Assembly: GCA_019358935.1 (NCBI GenBank) | Contig: JAHHIK010000036.1 | Span: 1-64,000, forward strand | Origin: Tolypothrix carrinoi HA7290-LM1 | GTDB taxonomy: Bacteria; Cyanobacteriota; Cyanobacteriia; Cyanobacteriales; Nostocaceae | DNA: 64,000 bases | Direction of reading: 5' to 3' | Shown: positions 1-16,049 of the stretch, piece by piece | How the letters are laid out: each line of letters starts with the position of its first letter | Numbering within the stretch: the stretch's first letter is position 1 | Program-made: the position numbers and the translations under genes | Notes under the pieces: model-generated | The model's input: only the letters and a program-made list of their open reading frames with translations | What the model was told of the DNA's origin: nothing | The model's database searches: none

Positions 1-155
1 TGAATACTGGTAACAACGGCATCGGCACGTTGGCGCTACGCACCAACGCCACTTTGTTGTACGCGATCGCATGAATTGAGTGATCACAAGCCGTATCAAT
101 CGATAACCCGCAACTTGGGTTAGTAGTCCACCAGATTAATTTTGATGAACTGCGA

Positions 156-187
156 GATCCCCGACTTCTCCAATAAGTCGGGGATCT
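156..187. repeat. Palindromic small dispersed repeat (GATCCCCGACTT-N7-AAGTCGGGGATC)
   Basis: 12-bp perfect inverted repeat; related copies at ~16643-16677 and ~57362-57394. Confidence 0.7.
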
Positions 188-234
188 GACCCCTCGCAAG
201 TATCCCTATTTTTTTGGCGATGTGAGAAAATACG

Positions 235-291
235 AAAAAAACCGCGATCGCGGTCGGGAAATTTATCCACAAACTGCGATCGCGGTTTTTT
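235..291. terminator. Hairpin downstream of hsp20 with HIP1 in both arms; probable terminator
   Basis: AAAAAAACCGCGATCGCGGT...ACTGCGATCGCGGTTTTTTT inverted repeat with A/T runs at both ends. Confidence 0.55.
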
Positions 292-348
292 TACATACCA
301 CCAAATCAAACCAATGTCAATTAAGCAGCTTTAGCTTCTTCAGTTTGG

Positions 349-810
349 TTAGCTTCGATTCGCTGTTTGAGCAGTATTATCTGCTAAATTAATTTTCACA
401 ACTTGGTTACGTGCTTCGATTACTTTGGGCAGTGTCAGCGTCAAAATACCATCTTTGAATTCAGCTTGCACCTTGTTGTTCTCAATCGCAACTGGTAGAG
501 GAATTACCCGTTGGAACTTACCATAGCGGAATTCAGAACGGAAGGAACTACCATTTTCAGCTTGATTTTCCTGACGCTTTTCGCCGGAAATAGCCACTAC
601 TTGCTGTGTCACCCGGATATTTAAATCTTTAGCTTCCACACCGGGAATTGATAAGCGCAAAATCAGGTTATTATTTGTATCTTCCAGTTCAGCCGCAGGC
701 TTCCAAGTAATAGCATCGCGCTTTTGGGTTAACATTTCATCAAAAATTTGATTCATTTGACGGTGTAGAGTTTGCATTTCTGTGAAAGGTTGCCAACGAA
801 TGATTGCCAT
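349..810 (-). CDS. hspA: Hsp20/alpha-crystallin small heat shock protein
   Basis: MAIIRWQPF start, SEFRYGKFQRVIPLP and AEFKDGILTLTLPK alpha-crystallin motifs; start moved from 855 to ATG at 810. Confidence 0.9.
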   Translation of the reverse strand: MAIIRWQPFTEMQTLHRQMNQIFDEMLTQKRDAITWKPAAELEDTNNNLILRLSIPGVEAKDLNIRVTQQVVAISGEKRQENQAENGSSFRSEFRYGKFQRVIPLPVAIENNKVQAEFKDGILTLTLPKVIEARNQVVKINLADNTAQTANRS

Positions 811-891
811 AGTTAACGTACTTCGATTGCTCTTTGTAATTGACTTTTGTTTCATACCTCTCTATAATGCCTGCGCCTTACTTAAAAGTTT

Positions 892-907
892 GTGAGGTAA
901 ACCGGAT
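892..907 (-). promoter_or_regulatory. K-box-like element upstream of hsp20
   Basis: Minus strand reads ATCCGG-TTTA-CCTCAC, a partial match to the cyanobacterial heat-shock K-box GTTCGG-NNAN-CCNNAC. Confidence 0.3.
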
Positions 908-935
908 CGAGATGGGAGTGAATACCAGAAATTAA

Positions 936-1140
936 TTGGGGCAATGGGCCCTATCGCAATGGGCATTGGGGAGGCAGTGCGTTGGACGGGTTTCCCGGCA
1001 GACGCGCACCTGCCGTCATTGGGCATTGGTAATTGGGAACGTGGTAATTGTCCCCCTGCTCCCCCTTGTCTCCCTTGTCTCCCCTGCCCCCTGCCCCCTG
1101 CCCTATGCCCTATGCCCCATTCCCCATTCCCCATTTCCCG
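936..1140. repeat. STRR heptamer arrays plus a small dispersed repeat
   Basis: GGGCATT, CCTTGTC, CCCCTGC and CCCCATT heptamer runs. Confidence 0.85.
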
Positions 1141-1237
1141 ATTATGTAATAGGCGATCGCAATCTCTTTCCAGGCAACTGCCATACAATTAAAACCAGAG
1201 CAGCGCTACTAGCAGACTTCCTTTTGAACTGTCAAGT

Positions 1238-1255
1238 TGTTTAAAGTTATGTAGC
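1238..1255 (-). promoter_or_regulatory. HLR1-like (RpaB) direct repeat upstream of psaC
   Basis: Reverse strand GCTACATA-ac-TTTAAACA resembles (G/T)TTACA(T/A)(T/A)-N2 repeats; a TAAACT -10-like hexamer follows at ~1287. Confidence 0.35.
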
Positions 1256-1350
1256 CTTTTGCTTACAGGTGCTAGAACACTGCGGTAAACTATGCCTTGA
1301 TTATGATTCTTTGGCAGAGAATAACACTTCAGTAAGGAGATTTTTTTTCA

Positions 1351-1599
1351 ATGTCTCATACCGTAAAAATCTACGATACCTGCATTGGTTGCACCCAATG
1401 CGTCCGCGCTTGCCCTACAGACGTGCTGGAGATGGTTCCTTGGGATGGCTGCAAAGCCCAACAAATTGCCTCTTCACCCCGCACAGAAGACTGCGTAGGT
1501 TGCAAGCGGTGTGAAACTGCTTGCCCCACTGACTTTTTGAGCATCCGGGTTTACCTGTCAAATGCCGAAACCACTCGCAGTATGGGTCTGGCTTACTAA
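1351..1599 (+). CDS. psaC: Photosystem I iron-sulfur centre subunit PsaC
   Basis: [22 protein letters not shown] and [12 protein letters not shown] 2x[4Fe-4S] motifs; [11 protein letters not shown]-terminus. Confidence 0.99.
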
Positions 1600-1665
1600 G
1601 AAATTCACCAGAATTTCTGATTATACTGGCAATTTACAGTCAATAGCAAGCAGATAACAAGATTG

Positions 1666-1716
1666 TAGGGTAGTAATTATACACTATTAATTTGAATAGC
1701 GTCTACTTACTACCCT
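1666..1716 (+). terminator. Stem-loop after psaC
   Basis: TAGGGTAGTAA...TTACTACCCTA inverted repeat. Confidence 0.45.
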
Positions 1717-1896
1717 ATAAAAATATCTGATGATGGCGAAAGTCGAAAATAAGATTGCACTATCGACTGATACAGAAAGCAAATTGCTCTTTTTATTTGT
1801 TCACATATAAACTTTGTTGAAAGTTAGCGAAAACCCCGCATTTGTGTTAACAACTATACTGGGTTTAGTCATCCTCAAAACAAAGTGGTGTGAGCA

Positions 1897-3777
1897 ATGT
1901 GCGGCATTGTAGGTTATATCGGCACTCAAGCAGCGACAGAAATTTTGCTCTCTGGGCTGGAAAAACTCGAGTATAGGGGTTACGATTCCGCCGGAATCGC
2001 CACTATTTGGGAAGGTGAGGTTAATTGCGTTCGCGCCAAAGGTAAACTGCATAACCTACGTTCCAAACTAGAAGCAGTAGAAGCCCCGGCACAAATTGGT
2101 ATTGGTCACACTCGCTGGGCGACTCATGGTAAGCCAGAAGAGTATAATGCTCATCCACACATGGATACAGCAATGCGGGTGGCGGTGGTGCAAAATGGCA
2201 TTATTGAAAACTACCGCGAGTTACGCCAGGATCTCAAACAAAAAGGCTATGTGTTTCGTTCCGAAACCGATACAGAAGTAATTCCCCACTTAATCGCCGA
2301 ATTCTTAAAAAACCCCCCCTCTTCCACCTTCCCCCATTCCTCTCCCTTCTTCGAGGCAGTGCGTCAAGCTGTGAATAAATTAGAGGGGGCATTTGCGATC
2401 GCCTGCGTTTGTGCTGACTTTCCCGATGAACTGATCGCCATCCGACAACAAGCACCGCTGGTGATTGGTTTTGGTCAAGGCGAATTTTTCTGCGCTTCGG
2501 ATACGCCGGCGATCGTTTCTCATACCCGTGCGGTGCTAACCCTGGAAAATGGCGAAATGGCACGGTTGACACCTTTAGGGGTGGAAATATATAACTTTGC
2601 CGGTGACAGGTTGAAAAAACAACCGCGCTTGCTCAACTTGAGTCCCATGATGGTAGAAAAGCAGGGATTCAAGCACTTCATGCTCAAGGAAATCTACGAG
2701 CAACCGGGAGTAGTCAGGGCTTGTTTAGAAGCTTACTTTACAAATGATGCATCTTCGCCGATTAATTTAAGCTTACCAGCAGAATTTTACGATGATTTAG
2801 AGCAAATTCAAATCCTCGCTTGCGGTACTAGTTGGCACGCAGCACTAATCGGTAAATACTTAATCGAACAATTGGCAGGAATTCCCACACAAGTGCAATA
2901 CGCTTCTGAGTTTCGCTATGCACCATCACCTTTGACAGCAAATACTCTCACAATTGGCGTAACTCAATCTGGCGAAACTGCTGATACACTAGCAGCTTTG
3001 GCGATGGAAAAAGAACGCCGCAGTGGTAGAGAACTCAAGTATCAACCGCGATTGCTGGGAATTACCAATCGTCCAGAAAGCACCTTGGGTGAAATGGTAT
3101 CTCAGATTATTGATATTCATGGTGGACTAGAAATTGGGGTAGCGGCAACGAAAACTTTTATCGCTCAACTGATGGCATTTTATGCTTTAGCCTTAGATTT
3201 AGCTTATCGTCGTCAAACAATTTCTCCCGACCAATTAGAGGAAATTATTACCTCTTTGCGACAGATTCCTAAAGAAATTGAAGCAACTTTGGAAAGTCAA
3301 GAAAATTTAATTGAACAGTTAGCGCACGACTTTGCAGAAACCACAGATTTTATCTTTGTGGGTAGGGGAATTAACTTCCCCATCGCTTTAGAAGGAGCGT
3401 TGAAATTAAAAGAAATCAGCTATATTCATGCTGAGGGCTATCCAGCAGGGGAAATGAAACACGGTCCGATCGCTCTATTAGATGCGAAAGTACCGGTAGT
3501 GGCGATCGCTATGCCTGGTAATGTTTACGAAAAGGTGCTTTCTAACGCTCAAGAAGCAAAAGCCAGAGATTCGCGCTTAATTGGTGTGACTCCCGTCAAC
3601 GATGGTGAAGCAGCGGAAATCTTTAACGACTTGCTCCCCGTCTCCAACGTGGATGAATTACTTTCGCCAATCCTAACTGTAATTCCTTTGCAATTATTAG
3701 CTTATCATATCGCAGCGCGGCGCGGTTTAGATGTCGATCAGCCCAGAAATTTAGCCAAGTCGGTAACAGTAGAATAA
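1897..3777 (+). CDS. glmS: Glutamine-fructose-6-phosphate transaminase
   Basis: MCGIVG N-terminus, GHTRWATHG, two SIS domains, DVDQPRNLAKSVTVE C-terminus. Confidence 0.99.
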   Translation: MCGIVGYIGTQAATEILLSGLEKLEYRGYDSAGIATIWEGEVNCVRAKGKLHNLRSKLEAVEAPAQIGIGHTRWATHGKPEEYNAHPHMDTAMRVAVVQNGIIENYRELRQDLKQKGYVFRSETDTEVIPHLIAEFLKNPPSSTFPHSSPFFEAVRQAVNKLEGAFAIACVCADFPDELIAIRQQAPLVIGFGQGEFFCASDTPAIVSHTRAVLTLENGEMARLTPLGVEIYNFAGDRLKKQPRLLNLSPMMVEKQGFKHFMLKEIYEQPGVVRACLEAYFTNDASSPINLSLPAEFYDDLEQIQILACGTSWHAALIGKYLIEQLAGIPTQVQYASEFRYAPSPLTANTLTIGVTQSGETADTLAALAMEKERRSGRELKYQPRLLGITNRPESTLGEMVSQIIDIHGGLEIGVAATKTFIAQLMAFYALALDLAYRRQTISPDQLEEIITSLRQIPKEIEATLESQENLIEQLAHDFAETTDFIFVGRGINFPIALEGALKLKEISYIHAEGYPAGEMKHGPIALLDAKVPVVAIAMPGNVYEKVLSNAQEAKARDSRLIGVTPVNDGEAAEIFNDLLPVSNVDELLSPILTVIPLQLLAYHIAARRGLDVDQPRNLAKSVTVE

Positions 3778-3948
3778 TTTCGTAGTGAGGACTTTAGTCC
3801 TCTCTAGAAAAATAACCTTTGAAGTAGTACGATCGCCTTAATGTAGGCGTGCGATCGCTCTTTTAAGGTTATTTTTTCTGGTCAGGAGCAGAGGAGAATG
3901 GACGCAAGCTAAAGAAAGAGCGCTACATGTCCGTTTTTCATTAACCAA

Positions 3949-3979
3949 TTGCTATTATGTAAGTACACCATGTACATAC
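3949..3979 (+). promoter_or_regulatory. Putative toxin-antitoxin promoter with palindromic operator
   Basis: TTGCTA (-35-like) followed by GTAAGTACA-cca-TGTACATAC inverted repeat just upstream of the antitoxin ATG. Confidence 0.5.
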
Positions 3980-3987
3980 GCCTGAAT

Positions 3988-4335
3988 ATGAGCAACTCCT
4001 ACAGCATTCGTAGTACTAAAATTGGTAACAGTGCAGGGTTTAGGCTACCGGCTGAGTTTTATCGGGAGCATCCTCAGTTTGCCAATGCAGATGGTTGGAT
4101 AGAGGTATTGTCGCCGGATACAGCAATTTTGCGAATAGTGCCTCAACCGACTGATGATGAAGACGCAGAAGATTCAGTAATGATGCGGCTCTTTCTCGAT
4201 TTTGCTATGACAGAAGCGTTAAAAAATAATACACTGCAACCTTATACAACTGAAATGTCTGAGGCTGCCCATAAACTTATTGCGAGTGTAGAATTAGACG
4301 ATGAGTTGTTAGAAGATGGCGAATTTTGCAAGTAA
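3988..4335 (+). CDS. AbrB/MazE/PrlF-like antitoxin
   Basis: N-terminal KIGNSAGFRLP swapped-hairpin motif, acidic C-terminus, 20-bp overlap with the downstream toxin. Confidence 0.75.
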   Translation: MSNSYSIRSTKIGNSAGFRLPAEFYREHPQFANADGWIEVLSPDTAILRIVPQPTDDEDAEDSVMMRLFLDFAMTEALKNNTLQPYTTEMSEAAHKLIASVELDDELLEDGEFCK

Positions 4336-4759
4336 TGGTTGGGAAGTTTACTATCATCCGCAACTATTTGGCACTCAATATCAAAAATTATTTTCGCGCG
4401 TTTCCCGTCTACAAAAGCAATTACCGGAGGCTGAATATAAAACCCATGCAACGGTAAAGTTATTTGCGGCAATTACTATTGCGATTGAAACGAAGATTCC
4501 CTCTGACCCGTTGGCAAGTCATTTTGCCTTGACAGGTGCGTTAAAACGCTATGGACGGGTGAAAAAGATAAGCTCACCGGAACGGTATCGGCTGTTTTTT
4601 CGGGCATTCGATACCGAAGAGTTGAAAGCGATCGCTATTTTGTGGTTAGGATTTCCGCGTAAAGAGGGGGCTAAGGATGACTGCTACCGCGTGTTTACTA
4701 AGATGGTTGAAGCCGGGAGATTTCCCGACAGTTTAGATGAGTTGCTGGCTGATGCATGA
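4316..4759 (+). CDS. Type II toxin-antitoxin toxin, YhaV-like (RelE superfamily RNase)
   Basis: NGWEVYYHPQLF, IPSDP, RYRLFFR, DCYRVFTKMVEAGRFPDSLDEL pattern resembles YhaV; 147 aa, basic. Confidence 0.8.
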   Translation: MANFASNGWEVYYHPQLFGTQYQKLFSRVSRLQKQLPEAEYKTHATVKLFAAITIAIETKIPSDPLASHFALTGALKRYGRVKKISSPERYRLFFRAFDTEELKAIAILWLGFPRKEGAKDDCYRVFTKMVEAGRFPDSLDELLADA

Positions 4760-4775
4760 GGTGATGGAGGATGAA

Positions 4776-4898
4776 TAGACTTCTTGCAGAAGTGGGGGAA
4801 AGGGGAAAGGGGAAAGGGGAAAGGGTAAGAAAAACCCCTCTGCTTTAACTTTTTTTCTTTGCCTAAGATTGCACTCACTTACTTTTGCAAGAGGTCTA
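4776..4898. mobile_element. MITE-like element, ~123 bp
   Basis: TIRs TAGACTTCTTGCAGAAGT / ACTTTTGCAAGAGGTCTA (16/18 match) with an internal GGGGAAA heptamer run. Confidence 0.7.
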
Positions 4899-4904
4899 AT
4901 GCTA

Positions 4905-5018
4905 ATACCGTTTCTATATGAAGATGCGCCTAATTAGCCCACGAAGGTGGGCTTTGTTTGTGTAGCCCCAGGCTTCCAGCCTGAGGGCAATCAAACGCAA
5001 CCTCACTAGAATTGGTAT
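4905..5018. mobile_element. MITE-like element with internal REP-like hairpins
   Basis: Imperfect TIRs ATACCGTTTCTATATGAAGATGCG / CGCAACCTCACTAGAATTGGTAT; internal AGCCCACGAAGGTGGGCT hairpin. Confidence 0.55.
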
Positions 5019-5025
5019 AAGGAAG

Positions 5026-5103
5026 TGCGATCGCATATTCAGCAATCATACGACTAAAATCTGTCGGTAAATGGTGACATTCCTCAAAAATAATCAAAGC
5101 ATA
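5026..5103 (-). pseudogene. Fragment of an SF2 (DExH, XPB/Rad25-like) helicase gene
   Basis: Reads YALIIFEECHHLPTDFSRMIAEYAIA, a Walker B DECH region; ends at a HIP1 site. Confidence 0.6.
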
Positions 5104-5237
5104 ATCAAACAGCGTGGTGAAAATATCAAGCATCTCAAAATTTAACGGAAAATCGAGATTCTTCCCTCCACTTCGTTGCCTTAAGAATGACGAAATCTCC
5201 CTTACGCATACTTTTAAAACATCCTCGAAGTCAAAAG

Positions 5238-7856
5238 CTAAAATCGCAAACGACGCTTCACAAATAACCGTATTTGCTTAAATCTAACTAACTTAGGATA
5301 AACAGGAATAAAAGACAGCTTTTGCTTGCTAAATCTAACTGCTAACGTCCTTGCTGAAGTGAAAACTGCGGCTTCATAAATGTCTATTTCCCAAAGTTGG
5401 ATGATTTTTTTTAACGCTTCTGCATTGCCAATATTACCCAAAGCCGATGCCGCGTTGCGTCTGACGTTAGAATTAGAGTCCTTGAGGGCGGCGATTAATT
5501 TCTGAAACATCCGTGAATTGACTTTTCCCAATGCCACTACAACCGATTCAATAAAATTAGCTTTGGGGTAACGTCGCCAAAATTTGTAAATCTTGTTGAT
5601 TATCTCGGCAATTAATTCGGAATTTTGGCTGATTCCACGAGAAGCCTCTTTATTCTGCTGAACTTCAACAATACATCTCCCCGCCAATAATAACAGCGTC
5701 TGAAAAATATCATCCTTTTCTTTAAACAACGCTTCTATCAACAGCATGGGATTTTCCATTAAACTTGCCAATAAAGTCAAAGTTTCATGGAAATCATATT
5801 CCCAAAATAGTTCTCTTGCTAAACCAATACCATCACGGGGATTATTTTTAATCGCTTGATTGAGATAATATGCTGTGAAATATTCCTGAAAAGTGCGATG
5901 TAAAAATAAATATTGCTCTCCCTCTCGTGAAAGCTTTTGAATAATTCCATCTGCTTCCGAAAGTTCTTTAATTAATTCCTCAGTAGTATTATTTCTCAAA
6001 TCGCGAATTTCTTGCTTGTTTAAATATGTTTCAATTCGATTATGCAATTCATCACGAGAAAAAACTTCTTTGCCATCGCTGCTAAACTTATATGCCAGTT
6101 CAGCCAATAATTTCTTTTTAGCAATCACATTTTCAGAAGATAATCGATTATTATCATTCCTCCATTGACTCAACATATAATCTACAGCTTTTTCATAAAC
6201 CTGGGCGCGACGTGCGGGAAGCGTCAGCCCTTTGGTTTGATACAAGCTACACAGCAAAGATAAAAGTAGGGGATTTTGTGCTAAACCAGCAATTTGTGGT
6301 TTATTTTGTATTTCGTCAATCAGCCCTTTTGCGGAAACAGAATCATCCTCAATATAACCAGCCGCATTCTTAAACCAAATTTGAATATATGCTTCTGTTT
6401 GCTTTTGACTAAAAGGAACAATTTCAACTTCCTTAGCGCCATCTACAAAAGCACCACCATAACCGACAATTCTGGAAGTACAAATAATTGGACAAGAATA
6501 ATTTCTCAGAAAACGGTTGAGCTTTTCTTTTAAACGAAGGCGATGTTTTTGTGGAACTTCATCCAAAGCATCTAAAAGTAAAAGACATTTACCATTATTT
6601 AATTTATCTGATAATAAATATTTGATAGATTTTGCTATTTTTGGATAATCTCTCTCAATAATTCGAGGAATAGCATCGATAATTTCTCCCTCAGCTTCAT
6701 CCAAATCAGATAACCGCAAAAACAACGGAAATATTACATCATTTACACCCCCTTCCCTTGTAGGCAAGGAAGTATCTTGCTCCCCTCCCCTACAAGGGGA
6801 GGGGTTGGGGGAGAGGTCTCTTAATAATTTCTCTTTTTCCTCACGAGCAATTAAGCCAGCCTCCATCCTTAACAAAGTAGATTTTCCCATACCTGGGTCA
6901 GCCAAAAGCATAATTTTTTGATTTTCTTTTTTCGCCTCTTCCCAGTCAACAACAACTCGCTTTGTTTCCTCTTCTTTTCTCCTTTGCAATTCCTCATCAA
7001 AACCTTTCATCGCATAGAGTCGCTTAAATTCCGCCTCACCTTCTGTATATGCCCAGCTTGTTTCTATTTCATGTTTGTATTTTCTTTCTAAAGTTACTTT
7101 AATCGGGATATATTGCTCTTTCAGGATAATTCTTTCTTGAGTATGGAACAGTTTAATATATTTAAAAGATTCTTCAATATCTGCCAAAAAATTGCCAACA
7201 GCATTTTTCTCTGGTTCTAATCCCAGCTTGTCTAATATATCAAGAATATTATCCCAGCGAATTACATAACTTGCATCGCTTTTACTGGATTGAATCACTC
7301 CCACCACACCGCCCAACTCTTCAGCCAAAACCGCACCGCCACTACTTCCCGATTCAACCTTCGCATCAAGTTGGTGAGACAAAAACGCAGAATTTTCCTG
7401 TGGTAGCTTATTCCAGGGATTATTAAACTTTATTTCATTTTGATTGCGAATTTTATAAGTTGAAACTACATTCAGAGGCGCACTAGCACGAATACTTTGG
7501 GCAAAAACATCAAACCCTTCCGGAAAATTAGCCTTTTTTGCTGGCGGAAAACCATAGACTTTTACCGATGTTGATAGCTGTTGAGGATTAATAATTGTAA
7601 CCGCCTTTGCATCCTCAACATCTATCTTTAAAATCGCAATATCTACTTCTATATTTGATAAATCTTCGCACCATTCTGCCTGATAAACTTGTCCTTTATA
7701 TTCTACTATGAGTGCATCCAACAAATAGATAACATGATGACAGGTGACAAGATAGCCATCAGCGTGAATAATAAACCCAGAACCGCCAGTCTCCCCGTTA
7801 GAATGGAGGATTTTGACCATTGATTTTCTCAGGTCATCCAGGGTGTAATTGCTCAT
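5238..7856 (-). CDS. Trypsin-like serine protease - NACHT NTPase - HEAT repeat protein (NLR-like), ~872 aa
   Basis: GSGF..YLVTCHHV (His), DIAILK (Asp), GSSGG (Ser); Walker A ADPGMGKS, Walker B LLLLDALDE, CTSR, NPLLLSLLC, FLHRTFQEYF; one HEAT_PBS repeat. Start set at MSNYTLDD (7856) because the ORF extension to 8036 is repeat-derived. Confidence 0.88.
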   Translation of the reverse strand: MSNYTLDDLRKSMVKILHSNGETGGSGFIIHADGYLVTCHHVIYLLDALIVEYKGQVYQAEWCEDLSNIEVDIAILKIDVEDAKAVTIINPQQLSTSVKVYGFPPAKKANFPEGFDVFAQSIRASAPLNVVSTYKIRNQNEIKFNNPWNKLPQENSAFLSHQLDAKVESGSSGGAVLAEELGGVVGVIQSSKSDASYVIRWDNILDILDKLGLEPEKNAVGNFLADIEESFKYIKLFHTQERIILKEQYIPIKVTLERKYKHEIETSWAYTEGEAEFKRLYAMKGFDEELQRRKEEETKRVVVDWEEAKKENQKIMLLADPGMGKSTLLRMEAGLIAREEKEKLLRDLSPNPSPCRGGEQDTSLPTREGGVNDVIFPLFLRLSDLDEAEGEIIDAIPRIIERDYPKIAKSIKYLLSDKLNNGKCLLLLDALDEVPQKHRLRLKEKLNRFLRNYSCPIICTSRIVGYGGAFVDGAKEVEIVPFSQKQTEAYIQIWFKNAAGYIEDDSVSAKGLIDEIQNKPQIAGLAQNPLLLSLLCSLYQTKGLTLPARRAQVYEKAVDYMLSQWRNDNNRLSSENVIAKKKLLAELAYKFSSDGKEVFSRDELHNRIETYLNKQEIRDLRNNTTEELIKELSEADGIIQKLSREGEQYLFLHRTFQEYFTAYYLNQAIKNNPRDGIGLARELFWEYDFHETLTLLASLMENPMLLIEALFKEKDDIFQTLLLLAGRCIVEVQQNKEASRGISQNSELIAEIINKIYKFWRRYPKANFIESVVVALGKVNSRMFQKLIAALKDSNSNVRRNAASALGNIGNAEALKKIIQLWEIDIYEAAVFTSARTLAVRFSKQKLSFIPVYPKLVRFKQIRLFVKRRLRF
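6748..6818. repeat. In-frame small dispersed repeat inside the NACHT domain
   Basis: GC-rich CTCCCCTCCCCTACAAGGGGAGGGG hairpin in an AT-rich gene; encodes LSPNPSPCRGGEQDTSLPTREGG. Confidence 0.7.
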
Positions 7857-7909
7857 GTTGGTGAGATATACTAAAAACGGCTTAAAACTGTCATTCTGAG
7901 CGAAGCCCT

Positions 7910-8320
7910 TAGTACAGCATTTCATTAATTTGTAGCAAATTAAATTTGGCAATACCCTGCAATGCCAATGCATCCCGATGCAATGCCAATGCATCCCGAT
8001 GCAATGCCAATGCATCCCGATGCAATGCCAATGCATCCCGATGCAATCTTAATGCATCCCGATGCAATGCCAATGCATCCCGATGCAATCTTAATGCATC
8101 CCGATGCAATGCCAATGCATCCCGATGCAATGCCAATGCATCCCGATGCGTTTAAAAACGCTACCCCAGCTCGCAAACAAAGCCTACTGACCCAGAGACT
8201 AAGTACAATTTTGCGTAAAAGCGTAGCGTTTTTAAACGCAGAGGAACACAGAGTAAGCGCAGAGGGACGCAGAGTATGTGCGGAATTTAATTCGTTACGA
8301 ATTTATGCAATATTGTACTA
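7910..8320. mobile_element. MITE-like element, 411 bp, with 37-bp TIRs and tandem-repeat cargo
   Basis: Left end TAGTACAGCATTTCATTAATTTGTAGCAAATTAAATT matches the reverse complement of the right end at 30/37; no transposase. Confidence 0.75.
7958..8146. repeat. Nine tandem 21-bp repeats (TGCAATGCCAATGCATCCCGA)
   Basis: Units start at 7958, 7979 ... 8126; units 5 and 7 carry a GCC>CTT variant; no spacers. Confidence 0.95.
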
Positions 8321-8362
8321 AGACCAATGAATCAGTTTTCAGTCTGCTTGGGCGGACTTCGT

Positions 8363-8743
8363 TCATGTAGCCGCAGGCTTTAGCCTGTCGGGTTTCTGTG
8401 GTGGATTCTGCTGACTCAAATTCCACTCAATCGTTACCTTGACATTAGCTTGTGCGCTTCCCTTAGTCACAAAAGGAACTCCTGTTTCTCCTCCAGCTTG
8501 CAAGCCAAATTCCATCGTCACCTTACTTGGTGCGCTATCACTCATTCCCTGCTTAACGCTATCGAGTATCAGTGTGGAATAATTGCGTACCGTACTAATC
8601 ATCATTTTTTGTAGCCTTTTTGACCTTTCCTGGATGTCGTCAATATATCCGACGGCTTGCAATTCATCACTATCAGCGTCGTCGTATTGAATATAGATTT
8701 TTTCTCCATCAGAGCCAATAACTTCTGTTATCTTTGCTGACAT
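8363..8743 (-). CDS. Trypsin-co-occurring small protein (Trypco1/CU044_2847-like)
   Basis: 126 aa with PSKVTMEFGLQAGGETGVPFVTKGSAQANVKVTIEW beta-hairpin motif; directly upstream of a trypsin-domain gene on the same strand. Confidence 0.75.
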   Translation of the reverse strand: MSAKITEVIGSDGEKIYIQYDDADSDELQAVGYIDDIQERSKRLQKMMISTVRNYSTLILDSVKQGMSDSAPSKVTMEFGLQAGGETGVPFVTKGSAQANVKVTIEWNLSQQNPPQKPDRLKPAAT

Positions 8744-8812
8744 AAGCGTTTTATTACAGCATTACCTTGACATCTATACCTTACCAAATGTTGCTCAATT
8801 TCTGATTTTCCG

Positions 8813-8993
8813 CTTTGCATCTACGCATTGCTGGCAAAATTAGATTTGGGGGTGAGGTTTGTAGGTAGAGTGCGATCGCACCTACGAAATATCGGTTTGT
8901 AAGATCGCGTCATGCCTGCGGAAAAACAACTTTGCGTCTACGCACCCTGGCAAAATTAGATTTGGGTGAGGTTTGTAGGTGGAGTGCGATCGC
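8813..8993. repeat. Two ~65-bp imperfect direct repeats, each ending in HIP1
   Basis: CTGGCAAAATTAGATTTGGG..TGAGGTTTGTAGGT.GAGTGCGATCGC at 8813-8879 and 8930-8993. Confidence 0.8.
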
Positions 8994-9388
8994 TTGCCTC
9001 ATACCAAAAGAACAATAGCTTAAAACCCATGCCCATTAAGCTTTCCGAAAATTGTACAACTTTTTTATTTGTTAATTTGAGCAATTTTAGATGAATTGTA
9101 CAACTTTATTTTTTATTGCTCGTACTATTAGCGACGAAATAATAGGGCTTTCAGATGCTCAAATTTAATAAGTTTTTTCTTTTTATACATCCTCTATCTG
9201 AGGACTGAAATTCTCACTACTAATTAACAGAATTCCGAAAAGAATCGTCTCATTATTTCTACTATCATCAAAAAGGCGTGCGATCGCTTAAAAATCGATA
9301 TCAGTGTTATCACCCTAACCCTTTTGTACAAACTATTGTCATTAATTGATATAAGTTTGTTGACTTAGGCTGAAGATAACACTCAAGG

Positions 9389-11704
9389 ATGAAAGCACCA
9401 TTACCTGATAACGAAGCACAAAGAATCGAAGCCCTTTTACAATATAAAATCCTTGACACTCCTCCGGAAGCTGTCTTTGATGACCTCACCCGTTTAGCTT
9501 CGTATATTTGTGGAACTCCTATCGCTAAGTTAAGTTTAGTTGATGCTAATCGGCAGTGGTTTAAGTCTAAAGTCGGTATAGAAGCACTACAAACACCCCG
9601 CGATATCGCATTCTGCGCTCATGCTATTCTTGAACCCGACGTTTTTGTTGTGCCTGATGCTACATCTGACGAACGTTTCGCAACAAATCCATTAGTAACT
9701 TCTGACCCCAATATCCGCTTTTACGCTGGTGTCCCCCTAATTAATCCTGAGGGACACGCTTTAGGAACATTTTGCGTGATTGATTATGTACCGCGAGAAC
9801 TTACTTGCGAACAGGTAGAAGCATTACGCACTCTCGGTCGCCAAATAATCAAGCAACTGGAACTGCGGCGCAATTTAGCTTCTTTGGTACTAACAACTAA
9901 TCAAGGCAAACAGACACGCAAACACAATAAATTCTTTAAAAGCATTGCTGGCGGTTTTGGGTTAGCATCGGCAATTTTAATTTTAATCGGCGTGGTTTCA
10001 TATCAACAGACAAAATTTTTTATTGAAACTAATAATCAGGTAAGAAAAACTGAAGAAAAAATCACCAAATTGTCAGAACTACTCTCCCAAATAAAAGATG
10101 CTGAAACTGGACAACGCGGTTACATTCTCACCGGTTCAGCTTATCTACAACATTATAAAGCTACACTGGCAAAGATTGATATTGCAGAACTGAATAATTT
10201 CACAACAGATAATTATATTCAAAAAAGTCAAATAGAGACGCTGAAACCTCTGATAGCAGCAAAGCTAAACGAACTCAAAAAAACTATCGATTTGCGCCAA
10301 AATCAAGGGTTTGATGCTGCATTGCAGGTAATTCGCACAAATCAGGGAAACAACATCATGAATTATATCCGTGAGATGGAAAACGAGGAGAAAAAGCGAC
10401 TTCAGCAGCAGTTAAAAGTAGCAAAATATAGCGCTCAGAAGACAATTTTTAGATTAGCGATCGCTATTTGCCTCAGTTGTCTCATTCTCGCAGGAATCTA
10501 CTACTTAATTTATCGTGAAATAATACGACGCAAGTTAACAGAAGAATCTCTGCACAAAGAACGCAACTTTATCTCAGCAATTCTTGATACTGTCAGCGCT
10601 TTAGTAATAGTTCTCGACTCCCAAGGGCAAATTATCCGCTTCAATCAAGCTTGTGAGGAAACAACTGGTTACTCATTCGATGAAGTCAGAGGTAGGTATT
10701 TTTGGAATTTGTTTCTACTTCCCGAAGAGATGGAACCAGTCAAAGCAGTTTTTCAGCAGTTAAAAAATGGTGAACATTTAAAAGAGTATGAAAACTACTG
10801 GGTAACAAAAAATGGCACGCGACGCTTGATTGCCTGGTCGAATACCATCCTGTATGATGATCGAGGTGCAGTAGAATATATTATCGGCACTGGCATTGAC
10901 ATTAGCGATCAAAAGCGAGTCAATCGCCATTTAACCGCACAACATACTACCACCCGCGTATTAGCCGATTCTACCACCATCGCTGAAGCGACTCCCCGAA
11001 TTCTACAAGCGATTTGCGAAAGCTTGGAATGGGATTTGGGTGAAATTTGGATGGTGGATGCACAAGCCAATGTTTTACGTTGTCTTGACATTTGGCATAA
11101 AGAATGCATCGAAGCGTCAGAATTTAAAGCACTAAGGCAAATTACTTTTGCAAAAGGAATTGGGCTACCTGGTCTTGTTTGGGCTAATAATGAACCTGTA
11201 TGGTTTACTGATGTCCTTGATAATGCGAAATTCCTCAGAGGAACAATTGCCCAGAAAGCAGGACTGCATGGAGCTTTTGGTTTTCCGATTCGCAGTGGTA
11301 ATAACATTTTGGGTGTAATTACCTGCTTCAATCAGCAAACTCAACAACCCGACCCAGATTTAGTGCAGATGATGAGTTCTCTTGGTGAGCAAGTCGGTCA
11401 ATTTATCGAGCGCAAACAAGCAAAAGAAGAACTTCAACGCCAAAACTTGCGATCGCAACTATTTACTGATATTACTCTGAAAATTCGTCAATCTTTACAA
11501 ATCGAAGAAATTCTTCAAACCACCGTCACCGAGGTGCAAAAAATTCTCCAGACCGATCGAGTGTTGATTTATCAGCCTTTGCCTAACAAAACTCAAGCTG
11601 TGGTAATAGAAGCTGTAGTTTCTGGCTTACCGACAATTAAAGACCAAAACATTATCGATTCCTACTTTCGCGCCGAATATTTACAACAACGTCCACTTGT
11701 GTAG
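9389..11704 (+). pseudogene. N-terminal part of a hybrid histidine kinase (GAF-CHASE3-TM-PAS-GAF-truncated GAF)
   Basis: GAF (FCAHAI, IRFYAGVPL), CHASE3 (DAETGQRGYILTG), PAS, GAF; the third GAF stops after DSYFRAEYLQQ; no H-box. Confidence 0.75.
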
Positions 11705-11709
11705 AAGAA

Positions 11710-13200
11710 GTGTTGGATTTATTAGCTCCCCAAGCTCATAATAAAGGATTAGAAATTGCGGCGTTAATTTATCGTCACGTCCCCATTCACCTGAAAGGAG
11801 ATGTTAGTCGTCTGCGGCAAATTCTCATGAACCTGCTCGGTAACGCGATCAAGTTTACTAGCACTGGAGAAGTGATCGTGCGGGCAGATGTGCGATCTGC
11901 CGAAGGCAGCAGCGCTTCGCTATCGCTTTCCTTCAATAAAGTTATTATCTACTTTACGGTTACAGATACCGGTCTTGGCATTACTCCAGAAGACCAATGC
12001 AAACTCTTTACGCCATTTACGCAAGTTGATGCTTCCACGACCCGCAAGTATGGTGGCACCGGTTTGGGATTAGCCATTTGCAAACAACTTGTTACTTTGA
12101 TGGGAGGACAAATTGGCGTAGAAAGTCAATTAGGGAAAGGTTCAACATTTTGGTTTGAAATTCCTTTTACTGTTGCAGTTGAACCTGTTTCTTCAGCAAG
12201 CGATCGCAAAGTCAAAAATCGGCACATCTTACTAGTAGATGACAAGGGGGCAGGCAGCAGGGAGCAGGGGGCAGGGGGCAGGGGGCAGGGGGCAGGGGGA
12301 CGAGGGGACAAGGGAGACAAGGGGGACAAGGGGGTAGGGGGCACTTTGCACTTTGAGTTTGCCTCCTCGTCTTCCTTGTCTTCCCCATCTCCCTTGTCTC
12401 CCTTGTCTTCCCCCTCTCCCCCATCCTCCACTCCCCCAGCTAAATCCAAATTAAAAATTCTCCTGGCTGAGGATAATTTGGTAAATCGAAAAGTAGCCCT
12501 AAAGCTGCTTCAAAGCTTGGGATACGAAGCTGATGTTGCTGTCAATGGCAAAGAAGTATTGCAGCTATTAGAAAAAATTCCTTACGACTTGATTTTGATG
12601 GATTGCCAAATGCCAATTCTTGACGGTTTGGCAACCACACGAGAAATTCTTAGTTGGCAAAGTGCTTCTTTTATTAATCATTGTCGTCCTGTAATAGTTG
12701 CGATGACTGCTAATGCGATGAAAGAAGATAAACAAATGTGTTTAGATGCTGGAATGGACGACTATCTGAGCAAACCAGTGTTGAAAGAAAAATTAGCAGC
12801 AATATTAGAGTATTGGGCAAGCGTGATACTCACAAAAGAAGAAACAATTGCATCTGATGAGGCTTCACTCGACTTACCAATTGATTGGGAACACTTGCAT
12901 CAACTCTCAGAAAACAACGCAGAATTTGAATTGGAATTATTGCAAATATTTGTTGAAGATATCCAACCTCGTTTAGAAGCGGTGAAACAGGCGATCGATA
13001 AAAGTGACTTTGAAAAAATCGCTCACGAAGCTCATCACCTCAAAGGTGCTAGTGCCAACATCGGTGCTACAGCCATGCATTTAGCCGCAGAAACATTAGA
13101 AAAACTGTCTCAAAAATTCGAGCGTAGAGGTACTGATAAGTTAATTACCGAATTTGAAGAATTTGTCAACCGTATTAAACTTTATTTAATTAGTAAATAA
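11710..13200 (+). pseudogene. C-terminal part of the same kinase (HATPase-REC stub-REC-Hpt), lacking HisKA
   Basis: RLRQILMNLLGNAIKFT, DTGLGI, GGTGLGL; REC1 cut after ILLVDD; intact REC2 (AEDN, LMDCQMP, SKP); Hpt AHHLKGAS. Confidence 0.75.
12243..12430. repeat. In-frame STRR cassette inside the kinase
   Basis: GCAGGGG, GACAAGG and CCTTGTC heptamers. Confidence 0.85.
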
Positions 13201-13364
13201 ACATAAATAAACGGAACTTTGTAGTAATGCACTCGTAGGGTGCGTTAGCGACAGCGTAACGCACCATTATCAAAGATTTGGTGCGTTACGGATTTCATCC
13301 TAACGCACCCTACAATACCTTTATTTAATTAGTAAGTAAACATAAATAAACGGAACTTTGTAGT
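13180..13364. repeat. 46-bp direct duplication of the kinase 3' end flanking a REP-like double hairpin
   Basis: 13180-13225 vs 13319-13364 differ at one base; GTAGGGTGCGTTA...TAACGCACCCTAC lies between. Confidence 0.8.
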
Positions 13365-13469
13365 GAGGGCTGAAGCCCTCAGCGATTCTCAGGGCAGAAG
13401 GCTAAAGCCTTCATTACGAAACATAAAATAATTTTATGTTTAATCAAGTCCGCGTAATTAGTATAAATT

Positions 13470-13570
13470 ATATGATTCCGGCAAATCAACTCTAATAAAA
13501 AACCATCAAATCGTGTAGAGACGTTATATATAACGTCTCTACAATATAGGCAATTTACCGGATATGGTAT
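13470..13570. mobile_element. Degenerate MITE-like element with a central GTAG...CTAC hairpin
   Basis: TCCGGCAAAT / ATTTACCGGA inverted ends; GTAGAGACGTTATATATAACGTCTCTAC palindrome. Confidence 0.45.
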
Positions 13571-13764
13571 TAGAGAAAATTAGTAAGCTTGGAAAGCCGC
13601 TTGCCACCGTAAAGCTTGAAATTCAGGTCGTTAAATTGAAAAGATATCTGCGTCGGCTGCCTGAATTATTTACTTTATTTGCACATCTGGCTAATGATTT
13701 ATTGAGGCTGAAGGGTTGATTAACTATAAAGTTTTCGCTTTTGCATCAAAAAAAACATGAAATT

Positions 13765-14052
13765 TTAGCAATAAGCTGTCACATCTTCACCGCATTCATC
13801 AGCTAGATAACACAAAGCTTTGAAACGCAGACCAACTACTTGCTCATAAAGAGGATTTAACTTACACATTGGGGGAATGTGAAATAATTTGCGTCCAAAT
13901 ACTTTGATATCTCTTTCAAAAGGACATTGAGCCGGAATAAGTTGACACAAGAAATGGGCAAGTTTAGGATTATTAATTTCTCTCGATTCCATCCACTGGC
14001 GGATTGGTTGTAGTAAATCGTTTTGTGATTGGATTTGAGTAAAGCTAGTCAT
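13765..14052 (-). CDS. Mo-dependent nitrogenase C-terminal domain family protein (function unknown)
   Basis: IPAQCPFERD and HIPPMCKLNPLYEQVVGLRFKALCYLADECGED motifs. Confidence 0.85.
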   Translation of the reverse strand: MTSFTQIQSQNDLLQPIRQWMESREINNPKLAHFLCQLIPAQCPFERDIKVFGRKLFHIPPMCKLNPLYEQVVGLRFKALCYLADECGEDVTAYC

Positions 14053-14273
14053 GATTGATCTCCTGATAATTTATGATTAGGTTGCCTTTTGTTTTTGGGT
14101 TTGAACTTGATTGTTATAAGTAAGTAGGTTCTGGTTTATTAGCTTATGCAGTTATTTGTCTTGCCTTTTTTATAAGGGATAGCGCTGAATATATCTCTCT
14201 CGTCGGCACAATTTTAACTACCAACTCAAATAATGCCGTTCCGGATAATCTTCAAAATATTTGCCTCTCAACA

Positions 14274-14466
14274 CGGGGAGGGGGGATGGGGGGATGGGGG
14301 GATGGGGAGATGGGGAGATGGGGAGAGGGGGAAGACAAGGGAGACAAGGGAGATGGGGAAGACAAGGAAGACGAGGAGGCAAACTCCCCCTTGTCCCCCT
14401 TATCCCCCTTGTCCCCCTTGTCCCCTTGTCTCCTTGTCTCCTTATCCCCCTTGTCTCCTTGTCCCC
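14274..14466. repeat. STRR cassette
   Basis: GGGGATG, GACAAGG and CCTTGTC arrays. Confidence 0.85.
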
Positions 14467-15884
14467 AAAGCGGGCAAGGTGATTGTAAACACACTTCCTT
14501 CACTTAAACGCGATCGCACTGTGACACTTCCATCCATCCCCTCGACAAGTGTCTTCACAATCGACAACCCCAAACCACAACCCCCGGTGGAACTTGTACG
14601 CGCTTCATCTACACGGTAAAATCTCTCAAAAATCCGCGATTGGTGTTGTAAAGGAATCCCATAACCTTTGTCGCGAACTTGAATAATTGCCGATTCTTCT
14701 TGTTGATATAACTTCACAATCACGGTTGTATCGGGTTGCGAATACTTAACAGCATTATCAATTAAATTAAGCAATACTTGTTTGAGGCGGTTGTAGTCTG
14801 CTTTTACTAAGAGTGATTCATTTTTTGATTCAATTATAATAGTGCGATCGCTATACTTTTTTGCCATAGTCACAACTTCTGCAACCAAGTCATTCAGCAC
14901 GCAAGGTTCTATCCGAAAATGCAAATAACCACTATCTGCCCGTGCTAAGTCAAGTAAATCTTGTAAAAGCCGAATCGTGCGTTCTGCTTCGGATGCAGCT
15001 GTTTCTAAAGCTTCCCGTTGAATTTCTGTTAAGTTATTTTGCCGCCGCAATACGCTTTGCAAGTAACCATGTACAATAGTTAAAGGCGTGCGTAATTCGT
15101 GAGAAACATTACTAACAAATTGTCGCTCTTGCTCCCAAGATTGAGAGAGGCGAGATAACATCATATTGAATGTTAGGGTTAATTCTTTAACTTCGCTAGG
15201 TGCGTTATCAAGATATAAATGCGCTTCTGGTAAATCTTCAGCAGAAATAACTTCTGTCATTTGACTAAGCTGGCGCAGAGGTTGCAAAGAACGTTTAATA
15301 TAAAAGGCGATCGCCACAGAAATCATCAGAATCGCCAAAACACTGGCAATACTCAAACTCCTCAGCATTGCTTGAAACATTGTTTGTTCGTAGGTAATAT
15401 CCTGCACAACAAACAGATTTCCCAGCACCTTGCCCTGCACGCGCAACGAATTGCAATATAAAACAAAGTAGCGTTGACTAACTTTGTGAACCTGGGGTTT
15501 AGCCGGCATCTCTGTCAAAGACATTAACTCAGCTGCTGTAGAATCAGATAGCAAATTGCCAGTGGTAGATTTTACCAGCATTTTGCTTTCAGGATTTTTT
15601 ACCCATAACAATGTATTTGCACTAGTTAAGTTATTAATTGCCTTTTGCAACCCTGTTTCTGGTGGCAACATTTCACTATAAAGTTGCACATCACGCGGTA
15701 AACGTGTAGCAATTTGTTCAATACTATGTTTACGACTATCAATCAAAATTTGTTGCATTTTCCAACTTGTCCAGATAGCAAAGCTACCTAATCCCAAAGC
15801 TGAAACCGCAGCAACACCAATTGTTAAGCGCACCCGCAATGAAAACGGGTCAATATTTCTGCAAATTTTCTTGATTTGATTCAC
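14442..15884 (-). CDS. Membrane sensor histidine kinase (2 TM, HAMP, HisKA, HATPase)
   Basis: FVSNVSHELRTPLT H-box, NLIDNAVKYS, FERFYRVD, GCGLGL; start uncertain. Confidence 0.93.
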   Translation of the reverse strand: MNQIKKICRNIDPFSLRVRLTIGVAAVSALGLGSFAIWTSWKMQQILIDSRKHSIEQIATRLPRDVQLYSEMLPPETGLQKAINNLTSANTLLWVKNPESKMLVKSTTGNLLSDSTAAELMSLTEMPAKPQVHKVSQRYFVLYCNSLRVQGKVLGNLFVVQDITYEQTMFQAMLRSLSIASVLAILMISVAIAFYIKRSLQPLRQLSQMTEVISAEDLPEAHLYLDNAPSEVKELTLTFNMMLSRLSQSWEQERQFVSNVSHELRTPLTIVHGYLQSVLRRQNNLTEIQREALETAASEAERTIRLLQDLLDLARADSGYLHFRIEPCVLNDLVAEVVTMAKKYSDRTIIIESKNESLLVKADYNRLKQVLLNLIDNAVKYSQPDTTVIVKLYQQEESAIIQVRDKGYGIPLQHQSRIFERFYRVDEARTSSTGGCGLGLSIVKTLVEGMDGSVTVRSRLSEGSVFTITLPALGTRRQGG

Positions 15885-16049
15885 TCTTATGTTTGGCTAT
15901 AGTTAGGATTAAATATTAAGGAGTTAAGAGTAATAGCGAATTCAATTGAATACTTTTCGTATTTGTATTTTCTTATACTTAACTCCTAACTCCTAACTCA
16001 CAAATTTAATTACCAATTACCTCCTTCATGCTTGCTACTCACAGTATAA

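Follow-up and report, generated by a model that had tools for sequence, protein, structure and literature searches.

The window analysed here is a stretch of 64,000 nucleotides from Tolypothrix carrinoi HA7290-LM1 (contig JAHHIK010000036.1, our C36; genome size 7.96 Mb). It carries a small Trypco1 gene and, downstream of it, a gene for a trypsin-like protease fused to a NACHT NTPase and a HEAT repeat, and the two very probably form one module. The best explanation, and in our view a likely one, is an NLR-like abortive-infection (cell-death) module in which the Trypco1 protein is cut close to its N-terminus. Modules of this type are already known; new here, and inferred, are the N-terminal cut and the contraction of the sensor array. 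An earlier note on this DNA had missed the likely cut site as well as the contracted sensor, which casts doubt on the working state of this allele. The genes are co-oriented, as that note had stated. Both reading frames are intact and in frame:

8363 to 8743, minus strand: Trypco1 (Pepco-type) candidate pro-effector gene, 126 amino acids (PF19493, E 2.3e-18; NF041216, E 1.2e-21)
5238 to 7856, minus strand: trypsin-NACHT-HEAT NLR-like sensor protease gene, 872 amino acids (domain matches, orthologue start, Foldseek)

In the proposed mechanism, the HEAT array would bind a foreign, probably phage, protein, as family knowledge suggests, and the NACHT module would oligomerise and activate the fused HtrA-like protease, as shown for Avs-protease systems. 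The protease would then cut the Trypco1 linker at V31|G32, with loss of an acidic hairpin and a shift of the isoelectric point (pI) from 4.9 to 9.4. The remaining core of helix and hairpin would assemble into an oligomeric beta-barrel, make the membrane permeable and so kill the cell, as shown for SsPepco. The domains, the catalytic motifs, the gene linkage, the amphipathic layout and the variation and contraction of the array are read from sequence; the cut at V31|G32 and the diversification of the sensor by recombination are proposed here. Sensing, oligomerisation, protease activation, the barrel pore and cell death are carried over from what is described for Pepco-Avs4 and bacterial NACHT (bNACHT) proteins (10.1101/2022.07.19.500537; 10.64898/2026.01.04.697583).

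A tested precedent is SsPepco with its partner SsAvs4 from Streptomyces subrutilus, for which a preprint describes a sensor-triggered protease that cuts its small partner into a pore-forming toxin (bioRxiv 10.1101/2025.11.14.688446). According to this preprint, SsPepco assembles into 9-10-mer beta-barrels; the trypsin domain of Avs4 cuts it after Ile97, and it kills cells upon phage portal sensing. Deletion of SsPepco abolished toxicity. The earlier note had proposed that ligand sensing activates the protease, which turns the small protein into a toxic effector; with this precedent the proposal is supported and probably right, and it is less new than had been assumed.

The small open reading frame (ORF) had been suspected to be of Trypco1 type, and two family profiles assign it there: PF19493 (67.1 bits; cut-off 24.6) and NCBIfam CU044_2847 (NF041216; 77.2 bits; cut-off 23). 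The following parts were distinguished, mainly in an AlphaFold2 (AF2) model and its predicted local distance difference test (pLDDT) scores:

8681 to 8737, minus strand: N-terminal beta-hairpin, residues 3-21, proposed removable pro-piece (AF2 strands 3-9 and 15-21)
8648 to 8653, minus strand: V31-G32, predicted scissile bond in a disordered acidic linker (pLDDT below 50 at residues 27-33; column counts)
8546 to 8635, minus strand: amphipathic helix, residues 37-66 (AF2 model; moment reached by 101 of 5000 shuffles)
8423 to 8524, minus strand: long amphipathic beta-hairpin, residues 74-107, predicted barrel-forming stave (AF2 strands 74-88 and 92-106)

Residues 2-31 have a net charge of -6.5. 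The two amphipathic strands pointed out earlier, in a peptide that corresponds to residues 75-107, are amphipathic beyond chance (observed moment reached by 11 and 48 of 5000 shuffles), and the alternating pattern of the long hairpin is kept across 108 sequences. The C-terminal tail of 19 residues is rich in Pro, Gln and Lys and contains neither Ile nor Val. Sequence and fold searches of the PDB gave no clear match (best E 0.023; Foldseek best E 0.46), and the best fold match (Z 4.5, root-mean-square deviation 4.4, 64 residues aligned) is no proof of a new fold. The protein has no Pfam match to Trypco2 (PF19631) or Pepco (PF24393), and PADLOC gave no hit for it. In the ESM Atlas, the nearest clusters outside Trypco1 carry PF24393 at 0.75-0.77, which is a lead only. 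Trypco1 was detected in 45 of 251 sampled cyanobacterial genomes, and in 24 of 31 within the window's family. One 201-residue protein, P0122, combines a Trypco1-like N-terminus with HEAT Pfam matches and is possibly a fusion or a misassembly.

Linkage of the small gene to trypsin genes in other genomes, which the earlier note had made a test of its idea, was found at most loci. A downstream ORF matching the large protein is present at 36 of the 40 closest Trypco1 loci (genome contigs); as to the other four, the partner of L118 was found by profile, two loci end within 500 bases and L096 shows no partner. Among 17 fetched regions, all 15 with a full Trypco1 ORF have a matching downstream ORF; L126 and L127, which lack a full Trypco1 ORF, were dropped. 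In a wider set of 113 distinct Trypco1 proteins, 91 have either a co-oriented downstream trypsin (57) or a divergent caspase (34) within 1.2 kb, 21 have no protease in the DNA examined and one has a convergent trypsin. Pairwise distances of Trypco1 and its partner protease are correlated (Spearman 0.87 for 54 gene pairs, 0.74 for the 38 closest), the pairs not being independent. The Trypco1-trypsin pair is also coupled to GUN4 or NB-ARC sensors, and the effector arm is therefore modular. Six plasmid loci, opened from among 49 records, are all trypsin-linked. Outside the cyanobacteria, Trypco1 was found in 3 of 301 and 3 of 401 genomes of two phyla, and none of four new loci is caspase-linked.

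Several of these loci differ in their layout. Two more Trypco1 genes of the window's own genome (G000), L001 and L002 (C57:11236-14802 and C64:9050-13697), are each divergent from a caspase-nSTAND1 gene whose tail looks pentapeptide-like or WD40-like by eye; the C57 copy has a K-G linker motif. In Calothrix parasitica NIES-267 (L101:6001-12346) one Trypco1 gene is followed by two tandem trypsin-NACHT paralogues. A non-cyanobacterial metagenome-assembled genome of Thermodesulfovibrionales (L125:1692-5016, a low-coverage contig) also carries the trypsin-NACHT-HEAT cassette, its predicted P1 residue being Lys. At L175:1459-3164, a Trypco1 gene with Gln in the P1 column lies upstream of one for a protein that by eye looks like an S8 subtilisin-type protease.

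The large protein combines Trypsin_2, NACHT and HEAT_2 matches, so that the domains named in the earlier note stand. Its start was corrected: orthologues align from the Met at 7856, the probable start, which gives 872 residues. The longest ORF (932 amino acids) starts at 8036 inside a tandem repeat of nine 21-bp copies; this start is repeat-derived and was rejected. The enzymatic parts are:

7212 to 7856, minus strand: HtrA-like trypsin domain, triad H41/D72/S172 (Trypsin_2 at residues 25-187, E 9e-14)
5847 to 6908, minus strand: NACHT module with P-loop domain, helical domain and winged helix (PF05729 at residues 320-497, E 1.6e-7)
6740 to 6830, no strand assigned: dispersed repeat that interrupts a NACHT loop in frame at about residues 345-372 (26 genome places; pLDDT below 50 at 349-368)

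The triad is intact, as had been noted, and shows no variation among the 47 partner proteases aligned; the closest solved proteases are HtrA, DegP and DegS. The PF05729 match is above its cut-off, Walker A begins at residue 317 and Walker B at 425, and a winged-helix motif was found. With the AF2 model of the large protein (pLDDT 76), the best Foldseek matches are NLRC4 (E 4e-12), NOD2 and NLRP proteins. At the site of the loop insert, orthologues have different inserts or none.

The C-terminal part, the putative sensor, comprises:

5412 to 5504, minus strand: single 31-residue alphaRep-type HEAT unit, residues 785-815, a hybrid that joins the first unit of an ancestral array to its last
5241 to 5411, minus strand: C-terminal cap, residues 816-872, conserved after the array in orthologues and of low pLDDT here

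The HEAT_2 match spans residues 773-824 (E 1e-7), and what the earlier note called 'a HEAT repeat' is literally one unit. Among 28 distinct orthologues that cover the whole N-terminal part, 22 have 6-15 units and the other six have 0, 1, 2, 2, 3 and 3, one of them being truncated at the end of its contig. In 21 arrays with 213 units in all, the median within-array DNA identity is 0.52-0.91, and within-array entropy is highest at unit positions 16, 13, 20, 17 and 24, on one helix face. Differing codons at the hypervariable positions are mostly non-synonymous (for example 803 versus 40 synonymous at position 16), whereas the invariant position 22 shows 0 versus 255; these counts are pairwise and not a selection test. 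In the PDB, the family profile matches alphaRep binders best, and the five positions together with position 12 have the same spacing as the variable positions 18, 19, 22, 23, 26 and 30 described for alphaReps (PMC3754942). It seems likely from this pattern that recombination among nearly identical repeats of 93 bp is what diversifies the sensor.

The window's unit resembles at its 5' end the first unit, and at its 3' end the last unit, of the six-unit array of L088 (Nostoc foliaceum). A hybrid of this kind is what an in-frame deletion from one repeat to another leaves behind. Collapse of the array during assembly was ruled out: run X1 gave one unbroken contig of 2993 bases (4977-7969) at one depth and without differences, although X1 is possibly the window's own source and hence not independent. 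Runs X2-X4, from relatives, show 93-bp back-joints at 5499-5416, and the genome holds no other copy of the unit. We take the single HEAT unit to be a real in-frame deletion in this allele. Recognition by this strain's allele is probably reduced, altered or absent, with the effector arm left intact; that the one unit and the preceding helices (residues 673-784) still sense something is possible and somewhat doubtful.

The cassette of this strain might instead be a decaying relic, with its array deleted, its operon broken by repeats and nothing triggered. One unit compared with 6-15 in most orthologues would fit such decay, as would the repeat insert in the NACHT module, the low-confidence cap and an intergenic gap of 506 bp compared with 79-80 bp in the close relatives L086-L089. 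The gap is swollen because of a 21-bp array and a second dispersed repeat, which together span 7958-8330:

7958 to 8149, no strand assigned: 21-bp x 9.1 tandem repeat in the intergenic gap, a dispersed genomic repeat (15 genome places) outside the system

On the other hand, both ORFs are intact, the triad and the Walker motifs are retained, and no terminator-like site was seen between the two genes, the promoter and terminator scan itself being uninformative. L091 has, independently, a single unit whose variable residues differ, and alphaRep binders with one internal repeat are described to bind at nanomolar affinity (PMC3754942). We therefore regard the relic as a serious possibility that is nevertheless doubtful; it is compatible with the abortive-infection module at the level of the family.

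High-identity tandem units, variable copy number and a hypervariable binding face are shared with the fungal het-e/het-d NLRs and with alphaReps, the latter being engineered. The fungal receptors use WD40 units. Since these arrays recall allorecognition NLRs and since the Trypco1-trypsin pair of L045 is fused to GUN4, the trigger could be a self or stress cue (filament allorecognition, developmental cell death or photosynthetic stress) and not a phage. We consider this unlikely, because the bacterial NACHT and Avs proteins described as tested are anti-phage (10.1101/2022.07.19.500537; 10.64898/2026.01.04.697583) and diversifying surface positions suit an arms race.

The cut site was predicted from the 113 distinct Trypco1 proteins, which were aligned blind to the partner before the V31 column was read. 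With a co-oriented downstream trypsin, this column holds V or I in 53 of 57 proteins (one A, one K and two gaps), whereas with a divergent caspase it holds K or R in 32 of 34 (one E, one Y). No other linker column is so conserved, and the residue that follows is small (G, S, A or T). The lowest pLDDT of the Trypco1 model falls at residues 27-33, and computed deletion of residues 1-31 removes about 6.5 negative charges and gives the pI shift stated above. Of seven more trypsin-linked loci, found on plasmids and in Bacteroidota, six have V or A. In a tree of 87 Trypco1 cores from which the linker was excluded, the trypsin-linked copies fall into two separate groups (36 and 17 rows), each of which retains V/I. 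PF24393 Pepco genes have a caspase neighbour at 23 of 25 loci. Nineteen of the loci were aligned and six left out, and one N-linker column holds K/R in 18 of the 19; given the weak homology to Trypco1, this column may or may not be of independent origin. HtrA-like proteases favour small aliphatic residues at P1. The column pattern fits the chemistry of the proteases, since the trypsins are HtrA-like, Ile has been shown for SsAvs4 and metacaspase-type C14 proteases are described to prefer Arg or Lys at P1 (PMC5756287). A cut of Trypco1 in the N-terminal linker appears probable.

A number of results weigh against the proposed cut and pore. The predicted P1 column has exceptions: among trypsin-linked copies, L177 carries Q and L125 carries K, although the S1 region of the L125 trypsin looks unchanged; the caspase-linked L002 and L146 have E and Y. 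The column is variable in distant representatives, whose partners are not known. The caspase-linked group forms one side of a branch (support 99/93), and the difference between V/I and K/R is therefore one evolutionary event and not 91 independent observations. The AF2 monomer model of Trypco1 is moderate (pLDDT 71; predicted template modelling score 0.47). Comparisons among the Trypco1, Trypco2 and PF24393 profiles gave weak results, and in hhalign Trypco1 reached a probability of 0.7% with Trypco2 and 4.2% with PF24393; because this homology is weak and unconfirmed, the barrel is carried over by name and layout. PADLOC 2023, to which the earlier note had pointed, returned no system match and only partial protease or HEAT matches; the EruA model scored 38.9 bits (cut-off 1000). 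Prediction of a complex between the protease domain and Trypco1 scored 0.00 in both runs and is no evidence either way.

The same module could also work by the route of SsPepco, in which a pre-formed barrel is licensed by trimming of the C-terminal tail; the N-terminal hairpin would then be structural. The sole tested Pepco works in this way, its authors group Trypco1 with it (10.1101/2025.11.14.688446), and the window's tail resembles that of SsPepco in being rich in Pro, Gln and Lys. This route is nonetheless quite unlikely here: the window's tail lacks Ile and Val, the tails of trypsin-linked copies are unconserved and have at most six residues in 17 of 57, I or V beyond position +3 occurs in only 9 of 57, and the conserved site that tracks the protease is N-terminal. 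The conserved Ile in a cleavable C-terminal tail that marks SsPepco was not found in these Trypco1 proteins. That Trypco1 is a non-toxic adaptor, chaperone or protease inhibitor, with the protease acting on other host or phage proteins and the linker motif as a pseudo-substrate, is very unlikely: Trypco domains are described as co-occurring or adaptor domains (PMC7159879; 10.1101/2023.09.22.558884), a P1 residue that matches the partner would fit an inhibitory loop equally well and profile comparison gives no clear homology to the Pepco type that was tested, but the conserved dyad-repeat amphipathic strands of membrane-crossing length and the helix match the layout of the tested pore-former, whose deletion abolished toxicity (10.1101/2025.11.14.688446).

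Compared with SsPepco and SsAvs4, the window's pair has the same arrangement, a small protein of helix and beta-hairpin encoded directly upstream of a STAND NTPase that carries a trypsin-like protease, with intact catalytic residues, amphipathic strands and helix, and a beta-branched aliphatic residue at the (predicted) P1 position. However, SsPepco starts with an amphipathic helix (L10, L17) and ends in a 20-residue Pro/Gln/Lys-rich tail in which it is cut after Ile97, whereas the window's protein has an extra N-terminal hairpin and linker and a tail without Ile; its sensor is NACHT-HEAT and not Avs4. Judged by eye from the printed sequence, SsPepco has the Trypco2 layout, and Streptomyces proteins named trypco2 by NCBI likewise start with a helix, and all five examined have I/V at the corresponding position of the tail. 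The preprint gives Pepco as 'also called Trypco1 and Trypco2', describes the module as prevalent in cyanobacteria and ranks Pepco as the most widespread protease-linked effector, with one member tested (10.1101/2025.11.14.688446).

Trypco1 and Trypco2 were named as neighbours of trypsin peptidases by Kaur et al. 2020 (PMC7159879), where PF19493 adjoins a trypsin peptidase as it does here. The systems described there are ternary vWA-MoxR-VMAP systems without a mechanism, whereas the window has a two-gene NACHT system; no MoxR or vWA gene was seen among the ORFs of window positions 1-16000. NACHT proteins are reported to be encoded by 58% of cyanobacteria, and the window's protein shares with bNACHT proteins an N-terminal effector and a NACHT module with winged-helix domain; a C-terminal repeat array as sensor is seen in 22 of 28 orthologues and is down to one unit in this allele. 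The window's protein differs in that its effector is a protease predicted to act on the product of a second gene (10.1101/2022.07.19.500537). In the EACC1-caspase module and in bacterial gasdermins, too, a latent pore-former is freed by losing an autoinhibitory piece, which in EACC1 is N-terminal; EACC1 belongs to an unrelated sequence family and is cut by a caspase at Asp49 (10.1101/2025.11.14.688446). We found no experimental study of a Trypco1-type protein or of a cyanobacterial example, in agreement with the earlier note, although the module type had already been shown in Streptomyces; PMC10681802, the figures or supplement of the preprint or STAND survey tables may already show such loci or the N-terminal motif.

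More broadly, Trypco1 and PF24393 might together represent a second, N-terminally unlocked class of Pepco pores, in which the linker residue is retuned to the class of the protease (Val/Ile for HtrA-like trypsins, Lys/Arg for orthocaspases). The NACHT-HEAT protein would then be a variable receptor driven by recombination, a natural alphaRep library with 1-15 repeats among close Nostoc relatives and a bacterial counterpart of het-e-type NLRs. We see the arguments for and against this wider proposal as evenly balanced. The role of orthocaspases in cyanobacterial programmed cell death is an open question. If the proposal is true, it would give many orthocaspases of cyanobacteria a candidate for their natural substrate and death effector; one such enzyme had been characterised according to a 2017 review (PMC5756287). 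Should the cut in Trypco1 lie at the opposite end, the published rule of C-terminal tail and Ile does not extend to it. With the proposed site V31|G32 (K|G where the partner is a caspase), the family can be tested directly, and the sensor, whose scaffold is 85% identical and whose variable repeats number 1 to 15, is a natural series suited to the study of how bacterial NLR specificity evolves.

Two PF24393 loci stand apart. L182 (G000 C46:33176-33526, in the window's own genome) has no caspase in the 3.3 kb examined and is the sole exception in the K/R column. At L192:3-1863, the Pepco gene lies upstream of a caspase-SAVED fusion, which suggests activation by a nucleotide signal.

The closest named relatives of the window's locus are Nostoc species. 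A DNA comparison of the first 20 kb of the window with eight close loci showed a flanking gene in common with L088 only, and the cassette therefore occupies variable contexts. A relative of the cassette was looked for in viral contigs, and none was found. Neighbouring genes include a GAF/PAS histidine kinase and glmS, both named from their translations, the latter together with a toxin-antitoxin pair. This pair lies at 3949-4759 on the plus strand, convergent with the cassette, and consists of a YhaV toxin (PF11663, E 2.4e-45) and an antitoxin with a weak resemblance to PrlF (E 0.023).

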